Of a stretch of 27,664 bases of DNA, positions 8,437 through 13,483 are shown one piece after another. Both the position numbers and the translations under genes were made by a program. This DNA comes from Thermoplasmata archaeon (GTDB lineage: Archaea; Thermoplasmatota; Thermoplasmata; Lutacidiplasmatales; UBA184), in contig JAGWLG010000041.1 of the NCBI GenBank assembly GCA_028864975.1, positions 1-27,664 on the forward strand. Direction: 5' to 3'. The notes under the pieces are model-generated. The model saw nothing but the letters and a program-made list of their open reading frames with translations, searched no databases and was not told where the DNA came from. Each line of letters begins with the position of its first letter. Position 1 is the stretch's first letter.

Positions 8437-8781
8437 ATGCCGAAGTCCGGCGGGGGGAACCCGCCCGTTAGCGCCGCTGTCGAGGGAGCTTTTACGAAGG
8501 TCTGGGGCGAGGATTCCGTCGTCGCCCTCGTGGCCCTGAAGGTGGAGACCAGCGAGGCCGACCACGTTGCCAGCGAGGCGGCGAAGTTCCCCGAGGTGGA
8601 GGACGTCTTCCTCGTGACGGGGGACACCGACATCATGCTCAAGGTCCGCTTCGTGAACTACCACGAGCTGAAGGAGTTCGTGATCCACCGGCTCCCCGAT
8701 GTGAAGGGGATCCGCGAGTCGAAGACGCTCCTCGTGGTCACGGCCTACAAGGAAGCCGGCGAGCGGAAGGGGGGCCCATGA
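8437..8781 (+). CDS. Stand-alone Lrp/AsnC ligand-binding (RAM) domain protein, no HTH
   Basis: ALVALKVE...FPEVEDVFLVTGDTDIMLKVRFVNYHELKEFV..L..VKGIRESKTLLV is a RAM-domain pattern. ATG 8437 follows GGAGG (alternative ATG 8410). Confidence 0.88.
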   Translation: MPKSGGGNPPVSAAVEGAFTKVWGEDSVVALVALKVETSEADHVASEAAKFPEVEDVFLVTGDTDIMLKVRFVNYHELKEFVIHRLPDVKGIRESKTLLVVTAYKEAGERKGGP

Positions 8782-9155
8782 GCGCCACCGCGACACCGAC
8801 CCCGGGCGCCCCGCGGGCTGCGAGCCCGGCCGCTCCCGCGCAACGGACGGCGCTCCCCACCTCTCCGACCACCCCACCTTCTCCCGTCGTGGTCGCCTCG
8901 TCCCCGACCAACTCGCCCCTCGACAAGATTCTCGCCTCGCTGGGCCAGATGGCCGAGGACCCCTCGCTCCCCCGGAACATCCGGCGGGGGGCCCAAGGGG
9001 CCCGCGAGACCCTCACCAAAGGGGGCTCCGCCATCGACGTCCGCGTCGCCGGGGCCGTTGGGCTCTTGGACGACCTCGCCAACGACTCGAACATCCCCGT
9101 GCACGGCCGAACCGCGATCTGGTCCTTGATCAGCCAGCTGGAGAGCATCCAGTGA
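8778..9155 (+). CDS. UPF0147 family protein with Pro/Ala/Thr-rich N-terminal extension
   Basis: EDPSLPRNIRR...LLDDLANDSNIPVHGRTAIWSLISQLES matches the archaeal UPF0147 pattern. ATGA overlap with the upstream gene. Confidence 0.85.
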   Translation: MSATATPTPGAPRAASPAAPAQRTALPTSPTTPPSPVVVASSPTNSPLDKILASLGQMAEDPSLPRNIRRGAQGARETLTKGGSAIDVRVAGAVGLLDDLANDSNIPVHGRTAIWSLISQLESIQ

Positions 9156-9170
9156 GCCGCACCTTCTTCG

Positions 9171-9182
9171 GAATCGTTAAGG
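9171..9182 (+). promoter_or_regulatory. Candidate BRE/TATA element (GAATC-GTTAAGG) for the tRNA-Lys / rpoH transcript
   Basis: The only AT-rich element between the UPF0147 stop and the tRNA 5' end, about 36-40 nt upstream of it. Confidence 0.45.
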
Positions 9183-9238
9183 GCCGGGCCCCGATGCCCG
9201 CCCTCGGGGCGAACGGTGGGCCCGTAGCTCAGGTCGGT

Positions 9239-9269
9239 AGGACGGGAGCCACCTCTCCCGCCCCGATGG
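9239..9269 (+). other. tRNA intron 1 (31 nt, D-loop position 20/21), relaxed bulge-helix-loop motif
   Basis: Central helix GTCG(9233-9236)/CGAT(9264-9267), 3-nt bulges GTA and GGA, inner stem GGACGGGAG/CTCCCGCCC with one mismatch. Cutting after the second bulge nucleotide on each strand restores the D-loop AGGTCGGTA. An alternative register (9240-9268) is possible. Confidence 0.85.
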
Positions 9270-9308
9270 AGAGCACCCGGCTTTTAACCGGGTGGTCCGG
9301 GGTTCGAA

Positions 9309-9349
9309 AGGTCTCGAAGTCCCTCCGACCGAGGGACGGGGCCCGAAGC
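9309..9349 (+). other. tRNA intron 2 (41 nt, T-loop position 59/60), strict bulge-helix-bulge motif
   Basis: Outer helix CGGGG/CCCCG, central helix TTCG(9303-9306)/CGAA(9344-9347), bulges AAA(9307-9309) and GCT(9348-9350), inner stems GGTCTC/GGGGCC and GTCCCTC/GAGGGAC. Cutting AA|A and GC|T restores TTCGAAT. Confidence 0.92.
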
Positions 9350-9417
9350 TCCCCGCGGGCCCGTCGACCCCCCTTCCCCACGCTCCCCGCTCCGCCGCCC
9401 CGACCCCGAGGTTCCCC

Positions 9418-9789
9418 ATGACCCCCAGCAAGTCCGCAGCGCGCCCGAAGCGATCGAAGTCCGGCACCAAGGGTGCCGCCGCGGCAGAGGAGGCCCCGAA
9501 GCTCCCCGCGGTCCAGCATGCCCTCGTGCCGACGCACGAGGTCCTCTCGGCCGAGGAGTCCCAGAAGGTCCTCTCGGCCCTCGAGACCGCTCCCGAGCGG
9601 CTCCCGAAGATCCTCTACGATGACCCTGGGCTGTGGACCGACCCCAGCTACCGGGCCATCTCCGACTCGGCCGACGGCGCCCGGTCGCTCGTCGGGCGGC
9701 TGGTCCGGGTCCGACGTCCCTCTCCTACGGCGGGCGAGGCCGCCGTCTATCGCGTGGTGGTGGGTGGCGCCTCCCTGCGCGAGGACTGA
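9418..9789 (+). CDS. rpoH: DNA-directed RNA polymerase subunit H (Rpo5)
   Basis: HALVPTHEVLS...LPKILYDDP...RVRRPSPTAGEAAVYRVVV. ATG 9418 follows GAGGT; the longer ORF start overlaps the tRNA. First gene of the RNAP operon. Confidence 0.95.
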   Translation: MTPSKSAARPKRSKSGTKGAAAAEEAPKLPAVQHALVPTHEVLSAEESQKVLSALETAPERLPKILYDDPGLWTDPSYRAISDSADGARSLVGRLVRVRRPSPTAGEAAVYRVVVGGASLRED

Positions 9790-9811: not shown

Positions 9812-12800
9812 ATGCGCGAGATCGTCGACGGCTTCTTCCGCGAGCGTTCCATCGTCAACCACCACCTGGCGAGCTTCAACGACTTCCTCCCGACCCCGGA
9901 CAATCCGGATTCCCGGATGCAACGGATCGTGGACGAGGCCCGGGTCACCGAGGAGGCCGCGGACCGGGGCATCATCCGGCTGGACGTCCAGAAGACCAAG
10001 AGCTCCATCTACGTCCGTGTCGGCCGCCGCCGAGACGCCCGGGGATACGTCGACCCGAACGCGGAACCGACGATCTTCGTCGGCAGCCCGTTCGTCAAGG
10101 AGCCGGTGGGGTCGAAGCCCACGCTCACCCCGATGGAGGCCCGGCTGCGGAACCTGACCTACATGGCCCCGATCTTCCTCGATGTCACCGTCGTGGAGAA
10201 CGGGGTCGAGCGGGCCCCCGAGCACGTCCACATCGGCGACCTGCCGGTGATGGTCAAGAGCCGCCCGTGCAACCTGCACCGGGCGAACATCGAACGGGAC
10301 ACGGGCTTCTCGCTCTACCCCGAGGAATACCGCGCGAAGCTGGTCGAGTACCAGGAGGACCCCCTCGACCCGGGCGGGTACTTCATCATCGCCGGGACCG
10401 AGCGCGCCATCATCTCCCTGGAGGACCTGGCCCCGAACCGGATCTTCGCCGAGTTCAACGAGCGCTACGGGACCCCCGTGGAGAGCGCCAAGGTGTTCTC
10501 CCAGCGGGGCGGGTACCGCTCCCTCACCGTCGTCGAGAAGAAGAAGGACGGGATCCTCCAGGTCTCCGTCCCATCGGCGAGCGGACAGATCCCGCTGGTC
10601 GTCCTGATGAAGGCGCTCGGAATGAAGAACGACGAGGAGATCTACCAGGCCGTCCTGGGCGAGCTCCTCCCTCTGGACGAGGCCTTCGTCCAGACGATGA
10701 AGCACCTCTTGAACGTCAATCTCGAGGAGTGCACGAGCAAGAAGACCTACCCCCCCGAGGGGATCATGACGGTGGAGGACGCGCTCCTCTTCCTCGAGAA
10801 GAAGTTCGCGACGGGCCAGGCCAAGGAGTACCGCCAGCGGAAGGTCGATGCGATCCTCGACCGAGCGCTCCTGCCCCACCTGGGCGACACCCGGACGGAC
10901 CGCCTCAAGAAGGCCCTCTACCTGGGACGCATCGCCCGTACCGTCCTCGAGCTCTACCTCAAGCAGCGGAAGGAGGACGACAAGGACCACTACGCGAACA
11001 AGCGCCTGAAGCTCGCCGGGGACCTCATGGAGGACCTCTTCCGCGTGGCCTTCACCCTGCTCCTGAAGGACCTCAAGTACCAACTCGAGCGCTCCTTCGC
11101 GCGCAAGAAGGACCTGCGCATCGCCTCGGCCATCCGCCCGGACCTGCTCACCCAGCGCCTGATCCACGCCCTCGCCACGGGCAACTGGGTCGGCGGTCGC
11201 GCGGGGGTGTCGCAGCTCCTGGACCGGACGAGCCACATGTCCACCATCTCCCACCTCCGACGGGTCACGAGCCCGCTCACCCGCAGCCAACCGCACTTCG
11301 AGGCGCGCGACCTGCACCCGACGCAGTTCTCCCGGCTCTGCCCGAACGAGACCCCCGAAGGGCAGAACTGCGGTCTCGTCAAGAACTACGCGCTCTGCGT
11401 CGATGTCTCAGAAGGGTGCGACGAGGAGGAGGTCACCCTCATCCTGCGCGACCTCAACACCCGCGAGATCGGCCCCGAGGTCTTCACCGAAGGGACGCCC
11501 GCGCGGGGCCGCCGGGCCGCCCGGGTCTTCGTCAACGGGAATCTGGTGGGCCTCCACTCGAACCCCGAGGAGCTCGTTCGGGAGATCCGGGACCGCCGAA
11601 GGGGCGGCACGCTCTCGCCCACGCTCGGCGACCAAGCCTACGAGATCAACGTCCGCTACGACAGTGTGATGAACGAGGTCATCGTCAACTCCGACAGCGG
11701 CCGGCTCCGCCGCCCGCTCTTGGTCGTCAAGAACGGTGTCACCCGCCTCGCCCGGCAGGACCTCGACGATCTCGGACGCGGCTCGCTCGCCTTCACCGAC
11801 CTGGTCCGGGCCGGGAAGGTCGAGTGGCTGGACGCAGAGGAGGAGGAGGACACCCTCATCGCCGTCGAGCCCTACGAGCTGGCCGAGCGCTGCCCGCACT
11901 GCGAGAGGGCCCTCTCCCGTGGGGACATCAAGTGGCTCAACATCGGCGAGAAGGCGACCGAGGCGAAGCTGCTCTGCAGCCGCTGTCAGAAAGAGTTCCC
12001 CGTCCCCCTCAAGCTCGACAAGGACCACTCCCACCTCGAGATCGACGCGAACTTGATGCTCGGCGTGTGCACGGGGCTCATCCCCTACGCGGAACACAAC
12101 TCGACGCCCCGGAACACGATGGGCGCCGGGCAGGCGAAGCAGTCCCTCGGGGTCGAGTCGGTAAACTACCGCCGACGCCCGGACACCCGAGGCCACATCC
12201 TGCACTACCCGCAGGCGCCGCTGCTCCGGACCCAGACGATGCGCTACGTCCACTTCACGGAGCGTCCCGCGGGGCAGAACTTCGTCGTGGCCATCCTGTC
12301 GTACGAAGGGTACAACATGCAGGACGCGCTCGTGCTCAACCGCAATGCGGTGGACCGAGGGTTGGGCCGCTCCTCCTTCTTCCGGACCTACCGCAGCGAG
12401 GAGCGCAAGTACCCCGGAGGCCAGGAGGACCGCTTCGAGATCCCGCGACCGGACGTCGCCGGGGCTCGCGTCGACACGGCCTACCGGAGCCTGGGGGAGG
12501 ATGGGCTCATCTTCCCGGAGCTTCAGGTCTCGGAAGGGGACGTCCTCATCGGCAAGACCTCCCCGCCCCGGTTCCTAGAGGAGAAGACCGACCTGCTCAC
12601 CCCGCAGAAGCGACGTGAGACCTCGGTCACGGTCCGCGCGGGGGAGGCCGGGTGGGTCGACTCGGTCATCCTGACCGAGGGCGAGAACATCTCGAAGCTG
12701 GTCAAGGTGAAGGTGCGGAACGAACGGGTCCCCGAGCTGGGCGACAAGTTCTCCTCCCGCCACGGACAGAAGGGGGTCGTCGGCCTCATCGTCCCGCAGG

Positions 12801-13483
12801 AGGATATGCCGTTCACCAAGGACGGCATCGTCCCGGACCTGGTCATCAACCCGCACGCCATCCCTTCGCGGATGACCGTCGCCCACGTCCTGGAGATGCT
12901 GGGCGGGAAGGTGGGCTCGCTGGAAGGCCGGTTCATCGACGGCACGCCCTTCAGCGGCGAGCGCGAGGAGGCGCTCCGCGAGTCCCTGACGGAGCTCGGG
13001 TTCGCCCCGACGAGCCGTGAGGTGCTCTACGACGGGCTCACCGGGCGGCGGATGGAGGCCCAGATCTACATGGGCGTCATCTACTACCAGAAGCTCCACC
13101 ACATGGTCGCCGGGAAGCTGCACATGCGTTCCCGCGGCCCCGTCCAGATCCTGACGCGCCAGCCCACCGAGGGCCGCAGCCGCCAGGGCGGGCTCCGCTT
13201 CGGAGAGATGGAGCGCGACACGCTCATCGGACACGGCGTCGCCATGGTGATCAAGGACCGCCTGCTGGACGAGTCCGACGGGACCGTCCAGTACGTCTGC
13301 GGCAACCCCACGTGCGGACACATCGCGATCCCCGACCACAAGGCGGGCTCGCTCCGATGCGCCACGTGTGGGAACACCTCGTCGATCTACCCTGTCGAGA
13401 TGAGCTACTCGTTCAAGCTGCTCCTGGACGAGCTCGTGAGCCTGGGCGTGATCATGCGGCTGCAGCTCGAGGACATGAAGTAG
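9812..13483 (+). CDS. rpoB: DNA-directed RNA polymerase subunit B (fused Rpo2), with Cys4 insertion
   Basis: 1223 aa; [39 protein letters not shown] and a C-terminal CGNPTCG...CATCG zinc site. GGAGG SD. Confidence 0.99.

Follow-up and report, generated by a model that had tools for sequence, protein, structure and literature searches.

A tRNA-Lys(UUU) gene split by introns in the D-loop and the T-loop in a Thermoplasmata archaeon

Sequence analysis confirmed that positions 9218-9363 (forward strand) of the window, that is, of the whole analyzed stretch of 27,664 nt, hold a genuine tRNA-Lys(UUU) gene that is split by two archaeal introns, one in the D-loop and one in the T-loop. We are highly confident that this is a functional gene of a Thermoplasmata archaeon, the only one for this tRNA in the assembly, and that its transcript is spliced by EndA and RtcB. 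The split gene is of a known mechanistic kind; its lineage and its enzyme context are unexpected.

Anatomy, splice motifs and genomic context

In silico splicing of the locus, i.e., removal of 31 nt at site 20/21 (9239-9269) and of 41 nt at site 59/60 (9309-9349), left 74 nt, which ARAGORN called as tRNA-Lys(ttt). The spliced product reached the top possible score in a home-made cloverleaf check, in agreement with inspection by eye. It has stems of 7/4/5/5 bp, contains U8, A14, G18G19, U33, TTCRA, and the anticodon UUU, and is collinear, without indels, with intron-free orthologues from the same class (about 90% identity to L125, 67/74 by hand count). There is no intron at 37/38 of this locus. 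The preliminary description of this DNA had proposed just this, a 146-nt locus that becomes a flawless 74-nt tRNA-Lys(UUU) after removal of two inserts at 20/21 and 59/60, and both ARAGORN and the cloverleaf score agree with it.

All parts of the gene lie on the forward strand. Exon 1 (9218-9238) covers tRNA positions 1-20, namely the 5' strand of the acceptor stem, U8, the 5' strand of the D-stem, and the D-loop up to U20, and it is invariant among relatives. Exon 2 (9270-9308) covers positions 21-59, with the 3' strand of the D-stem, the anticodon arm (UUU at 9283-9285), the variable loop, the 5' strand of the T-stem, and T54-A59; its identity to relatives across the class is 82-100%. Exon 3 (9350-9363) covers positions 60-73, with U60, the 3' strands of the T-stem and the acceptor stem, and the discriminator G. 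The CCA is not encoded. BLAST with the spliced product recovered exon 1, in a search against the genome, and exon 3.

The unspliced gene escaped standard detection, as the preliminary description had anticipated. ARAGORN found no tRNA anywhere in the window, and no Rfam match at the gathering threshold was present in the window either. A genome-wide search with RF00005 returned the locus as a partial match of 23.5 bits, below the cut-off of 29 bits.

In the archaeal BHB motif, the four exon nucleotides 5' of the 5' bulge pair with four intron nucleotides 5' of the 3' bulge. Both introns have two 3-nt bulges on opposite strands with a 4-bp central helix between them. In intron 1, the central helix GTCG/CGAT, which includes one G.U pair, joins 9233-9236 with 9264-9267, the bulges GT|A and GG|A lie at 9237-9239 and 9268-9270, and the intron-side helix starts at 9240 with two pairs, an A.C mismatch, and six more pairs. 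The D-stem is reached only past the unpaired A14-G15. Because the 3' bulge faces these two nucleotides, which places the 3' site within a 2x3 internal loop, the motif is relaxed and HBh'-like. On sequence alone, an AG|AG repeat would allow the junction of intron 1 to slide by 1-2 nt, and it is the BHB geometry that fixes it at 20/21. In intron 2, the central helix TTCG/CGAA joins 9303-9306 with 9344-9347, the bulges AA|A and GC|T lie at 9307-9309 and 9348-9350, and the flanks are the 5-bp T-stem on the exon side and seven consecutive pairs from 9310 on the intron side. Intron 2 is a strict hBHBh' motif. Intron 1 is not: its h' is present, but the exon-side helix does not abut the 3' bulge. The helices and the 3-nt bulges were as originally proposed, but the strict motif holds for intron 2 only. 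A fold constrained to the cloverleaf and the two BHBs has -77.8 kcal/mol, compared with -83.4 for the MFE, and both BHB helices are already present in the unconstrained centroid fold.

Upstream of the tRNA gene lies a gene of the UPF0147 family (8778-9155, forward strand; Pfam PF03685, E 4e-25), whose stop context CAGTGA is kept upstream of the tRNA in relatives. The tRNA gene is followed downstream by rpoH, encoding RNA polymerase subunit H (9418-9789, forward strand; Pfam Rpb5_C, E 1.4e-16, in this frame), and then by rpoB (9812-13483); domains of rpoB and rpoA' were identified. The gene order UPF0147, tRNA-Lys, rpoH, rpoB is common to relatives. The RpoB protein encoded beside the tRNA is 97% identical to that of MAGs labeled "Thermoplasmata archaeon", 85-86% identical to that of Ca. 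Lutacidiplasma silvani and Ca. Lutacidiplasmatales MAGs, and 67-68% identical to that of Methanomassiliicoccales MAGs. By these identities, the host is a Thermoplasmata archaeon near Ca. Lutacidiplasmatales, in line with the Thermoplasmata-like host suggested at the outset.

A likely position for a TATA-like promoter is 9177-9184 (forward strand), from -41 to -34 relative to the mature 5' end. At this position a TGAAATAC box is conserved in 86 distinct relatives, with 80-90% A/T against a background of 15-25% A/T, and it is probably a TATA element. The corresponding sequence of this genome, TTAAGGGC, is a weaker A/T element than those of the relatives. The gene would have its own promoter between the UPF0147 gene and the rpoH-rpoB-rpoA' operon, and its transcription would yield a precursor with a core of 146 nt. 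This precursor is predicted to fold into the cloverleaf plus two BHB modules, in which the tRNA loop nucleotides 16-19 (D) and 54-57 (T) each provide one strand of a 4-bp central helix. In each 3-nt bulge, the two-unit alpha'2 EndA of this genome would cut behind the second nucleotide, also at the relaxed 3' site of intron 1, the three exons would be joined by RtcB, and the CCA would be added post-transcriptionally.

Conservation, covariation and need for the gene

Relatives' loci were collected by a DNA search of 40 relatives and from 80 loci anchored on the adjacent rpoB. The preliminary description had raised the question of whether relatives share the introns, and inserts were indeed found at the same two sites in 103 loci (88 distinct sequences) from independent assemblies. 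An unpublished genome, G120, was among the search matches, and none of the conclusions depends on it. This bears on the possibility that the inserts come from metagenome mis-assembly or wrong binning. The genome is a draft of 124 contigs with 89.6% completeness; however, about 100 MAGs produced by many separate projects show this architecture in the same position 5' of rpoB, including on contigs whose lengths run from several hundred kb to over 2 Mb. An artefact is therefore the least credible of the explanations considered, and we regard it as practically negligible.

The exons are near-invariant across the 88 distinct orthologues, and the intron sequences have diverged. Intron 1 has a length of 31 nt in 80 of them, and intron 2 measures between 26 and 58 nt. 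All 88 orthologues preserve pairs 2-4 of the intron 1 central helix, with TA/CG/TG and AT/CG as alternatives, and pair 1 is formed in 47 of the 88 only. In the intron-side helices of both introns, GC, CG, AT, and TA are exchanged among relatives. An ungapped alignment of 47 orthologues of equal length was used to quantify the pairing. The cloverleaf plus BHB structure has 94.8% paired cells in this alignment, compared with 36-57% pairing for slid controls, and both partners have changed in 11 pairs. None of 500 shuffles matched the observed covariation, a count that overstates the significance because the sequences are related. The slid controls and the compensatory changes at individual pairs are the stronger argument. 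Such two-sided changes affect the intron 1 central helix as well as the intron-side helices of both introns, which indicates that the BHB motif is kept by selection.

Neither a further Lys(UUU) anticodon arm within a tRNA context nor a paralogue is present in the assembly (89.6% complete). The only other Lys tRNA in it has the anticodon CUU (contig C39). Another intact tRNA-Lys(UUU), which the preliminary description had considered, was thus not found, although an assembly of about 90% completeness leaves some room for a second copy. AAA codons are rare yet used, with one each in rpoB and rpoA'; in rpoB, a single AAA stands against 56 AAG.

These results also bear on the view that the locus is a decaying tRNA pseudogene with two insertions, in which BHB-like pairings have arisen by chance. 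It is true that standard tRNA finders do not call the locus, and helices arise easily by chance at such a high G+C content, as the many spurious calls of ARAGORN -i illustrate. However, the exons stayed (near-)invariant over 88 distinct orthologues while the introns drifted, the BHB pairing was retained via compensatory changes, and the gene is the only one for Lys(UUU) in the assembly. Furthermore, the loci L013 and L093 have lost intron 2 precisely and were left with an intact T-loop. A pseudogene is therefore very improbable, and a functional gene remains by far the better reading.

Introns in other tRNA genes, in relatives, and the splicing enzymes

The other tRNA genes of the genome were surveyed with a home-made census that combined T-arm plus acceptor seeds, BHB enumeration, and the cloverleaf score, and that may miss other architectures. 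About 18 of the approximately 50 tRNA genes bear introns in this census, 12 of them non-canonical and mostly at 59/60, and Lys-UUU is the only gene with two. Introns at 59/60, 28-41 nt long and with the T-stem on the exon side, are present in Lys-UUU, Asn, Gly-UCC, Ser-GCU, Ser-GGA, Arg-UCG, His, Ala-GGC, and Asp; in the seven that were inspected, at least three of the four central pairs are kept. D-loop introns were found in Lys-UUU, Arg-GCG, Leu-UAG, and Pro-UGG, the first three without an exon-side helix, and canonical introns at 37/38 in Glu-UUC, Tyr, Met, and Leu-UAA. Gene finders without BHB models would report no tRNA for AAA codons in this genome. About a dozen other tRNAs would be overlooked or cut short by them as well, so that the genome looks less complete than it is.

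Two broader searches were abandoned. ARAGORN -i gave 110 calls on the whole genome, mostly spurious long-intron models in high-G+C DNA, and these were discarded. Brute-force BHB enumeration combined with ARAGORN on the spliced variants produced thousands of false three-intron solutions and was replaced by the stricter cloverleaf score.

Several further observations were made on these genes. Two tRNA genes with long variable arms (C83:15780-15883 and C10:2785-2897) carry an insert within or close to the anticodon loop, and one of them may encode tRNA-Trp. Of the two tRNA-Ala(GGC) genes, one is compact (C2:71816-71888) and one has a 31-nt intron at 59/60 (C97:90656-90758). Two tRNA-Ile(GAT) genes have exactly the same sequence (C60:2690-2764 and C99:908-982), and two tRNA-Met(CAT) matches have equal Infernal scores (C77:15387-15459 and C100:1043-1115). 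As the members of each pair lie on different contigs, they might reflect repeats or contig ends that the draft assembly contains twice. A common origin of all nine T-loop introns was considered but found no overall support, as the mean z was 0.45 and only the pairs His/Ser-GGA and His/Asp were mildly similar. The T-loop introns of tRNA-His, tRNA-Ser(GGA), and tRNA-Asp (C93:18312-18418, C104:121071-121188, and C119:61570-61674) resemble one another, with z values of 3.0-3.8 versus shuffles, unlike the remaining T-loop introns, and this likeness may reflect the movement of introns from one tRNA gene to another.

The spread of the trait was followed by aligning the spliced tRNA to the loci of relatives with free long gaps, without assuming a splice motif. 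Within Thermoplasmata, tRNA-Lys(UUU) genes without introns occur in families f8, f15, f20, and f21. Two genomes of f20 (G128 and G121) are presumably Thermoplasma, and one of f15 (G042) is presumably Aciduliprofundum. The intron at 59/60 is present alone in families f4 and f12, and that at 20/21 alone in f14. Both introns are present in f1, f2, f3, f6, f7, f10, f17, f25, f26, and f28. The eight families f5, f9, f16, f22, f23, f24, f27, and f30 have a third intron of 31-104 nt at 37/38 in addition (loci L114, L118, L126, L134-L136, L141, L142, L145, L151, and L152). In another family (f11), locus L121 of genome G038 has the 59/60 intron in a tRNA-Lys(CUU) gene instead of the UUU gene. The lineage that has lost intron 2, with L013 (genome G010) and the identical L093, belongs to the same family as this genome; it has kept the 20/21 intron and offers a clear case of an intron being lost.

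In other classes of the phylum, tRNA-Lys(UUU) is mostly compact, and introns were found singly, at 59/60 in f31 and at 20/21 in f37, f45, and f61. The single 20/21 intron of f61 (L202, genome G212) is unusually long, with 155 nt, and A/T-rich. The sampled families of the class thus have zero, one, two, or three introns in this tRNA, and the two sites are old and recurrent. The two-intron arrangement is ancient and widespread in Thermoplasmata. This modifies the preliminary description, which had proposed an independent expansion of tRNA introns by this lineage. Eleven other tRNA genes of this genome do carry non-canonical introns in the census. The split state of tRNA-Lys(UUU) is not an innovation of this lineage, as most sampled families of the class have introns at the same two sites and single introns at these sites occur in other classes.

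Genes for both splicing enzymes were found. RtcB is encoded on contig C104 (565 bits). EndA is encoded on contig C53 (L031:1447-2571, reverse strand) as one protein of 374 aa with two PF01974 endonuclease units, which aligns end to end with the alpha'2 EndA of A. fulgidus. By this alignment, its architecture is single-chain alpha'2 and neither (alpha-beta)2 nor epsilon2. The catalytic unit is collinear with the EndA of M. jannaschii. The crenarchaeal specificity loop (L1) is absent, as the alignment shows a gap of about 10 residues against the A. pernix alpha subunit (3p1z_B); for the loops L2 and L3, the assessment is based on length and collinearity and not on a structure.

The EndA proteins of Thermoplasmata (loci L153-L182) are of two forms. 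Intron-bearing families have a long form of about 350-370 aa with a complete N-terminal repeat and the conserved motif PRGGxPxKTPSKxWV. Families f15, f20, and f21 have divergent enzymes of 289-321 aa with deletions in both repeats. The segment GGTPSKTPSKWW of the N-terminal repeat was considered as an insertion that could form a lineage-specific loop, but the alignment showed a deletion in the short enzymes of the three families instead, and the segment belongs to the structural unit, away from the known loop site. The long form and the presence of introns are not strictly coupled. Family f8 has the long form together with compact Lys tRNAs, so that the link between EndA form and introns is loose.

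It is the relaxed motif of intron 1 that leaves most room for a different explanation. The T-loop intron might be spliced as proposed, but splicing of the D-loop intron might be inefficient or aided by an accessory factor, a certain order of cleavages, or an undescribed determinant in EndA, and EndA alone would then be an incomplete account. The 3' site of intron 1 lies in the 2x3 internal loop without an exon-side helix, and further D-loop introns of this genome also lack this helix. The catalytic unit follows the strict M. jannaschii enzyme collinearly and has no A. pernix loop. In addition, loop-less enzymes of M. kandleri and A. fulgidus process a D-loop HBh' intron poorly (PMC5829648); the A. 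fulgidus alpha'2 EndA failed in vitro on that of M. kandleri (PMC5829648). On the other hand, the 20/21 intron is conserved across the class with a fixed length of 31 nt, and this argues that it is processed well enough in vivo. Aided or inefficient splicing of the D-loop intron is thus a serious option, which we nevertheless consider clearly less probable than its opposite.

Beyond this gene, we tentatively advance a wider proposal, which we rate at somewhat less than an even chance. Apart from the Thermoplasma and Aciduliprofundum groups, most Thermoplasmata might routinely splice relaxed D-loop BHBs and many T-loop introns with a loop-less single-chain alpha'2 EndA. If so, a broad substrate range would have arisen by a further, undescribed route, in the enzyme itself or through a helper, and the textbook tie between EndA architecture and intron diversity would fail for a whole euryarchaeal class. 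The gene is a natural substrate for asking what sets the specificity of EndA, and the closely related families with zero, one, two, or three introns in the same tRNA lend themselves well to dating when introns were gained and lost.

Comparison with known split tRNA genes

Two views from the literature are affected. According to the first, only (alpha-beta)2 and epsilon2 EndAs with specific loops cut relaxed motifs (PMC5829648). According to the second, fewer than 10% of the tRNA genes of Euryarchaeota, among which Thermoplasmata are placed, bear introns, with a single canonical intron each (PMC4090602).

The closest precedent is the pre-tRNA-Glu(UUC) of M. kandleri (Kaneta et al. 2018, PMC5829648). 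It is also euryarchaeal, has more than one intron, including a relaxed D-loop HBh' intron just before A21, and is processed by an EndA without specificity loops. However, M. kandleri has an (alpha-beta)2 heterotetramer, whereas a single-chain alpha'2 EndA is encoded here, the other intron is canonical (37/38) there and lies at 59/60 in the T-loop here, and one species is concerned there and a whole class here.

Thermoproteales and other Crenarchaeota (Marck & Grosjean 2003, Sugahara et al. 2007/2008, as cited in PMC4090602) have similar BHB introns of 11-130 nt in the D- and T-loops, with up to three introns per gene and with strict as well as relaxed motifs. In contrast to the present genome, with its loop-less alpha'2 enzyme, these lineages have an (alpha-beta)2 EndA with a crenarchaea-specific loop.

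One or two predicted BHB introns are also present in the euryarchaeal tRNA-Pyl genes of Ca. Methanohalarchaeum thermophilum HMET1 (PMC9071458). However, this is another tRNA in another lineage, and it is treated there in a side note, without an analysis of class-wide conservation or covariation. In Asgard archaea (bioRxiv 10.64898/2026.10.13.758758), heavily interrupted tRNA genes have introns that are likewise missed by standard annotation and often lie in an enlarged D-loop. In that study, motif-free alignment to compact orthologues exposed the introns, and the same logic was applied here; it concerns another phylum, and Thermoplasmata are unmentioned.

In the limited set of papers that was searched, no description of multi-intron tRNAs in Thermoplasmata was found. 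The D- and T-loop introns throughout this class are a clear counter-example to the statement in reviews that Euryarchaeota with alpha4 or alpha'2 enzymes have single canonical introns with a strict BHB. Taken together, this genome and its class fit neither the EndA-specificity view (PMC5829648) nor the single-canonical-intron view (PMC4090602).
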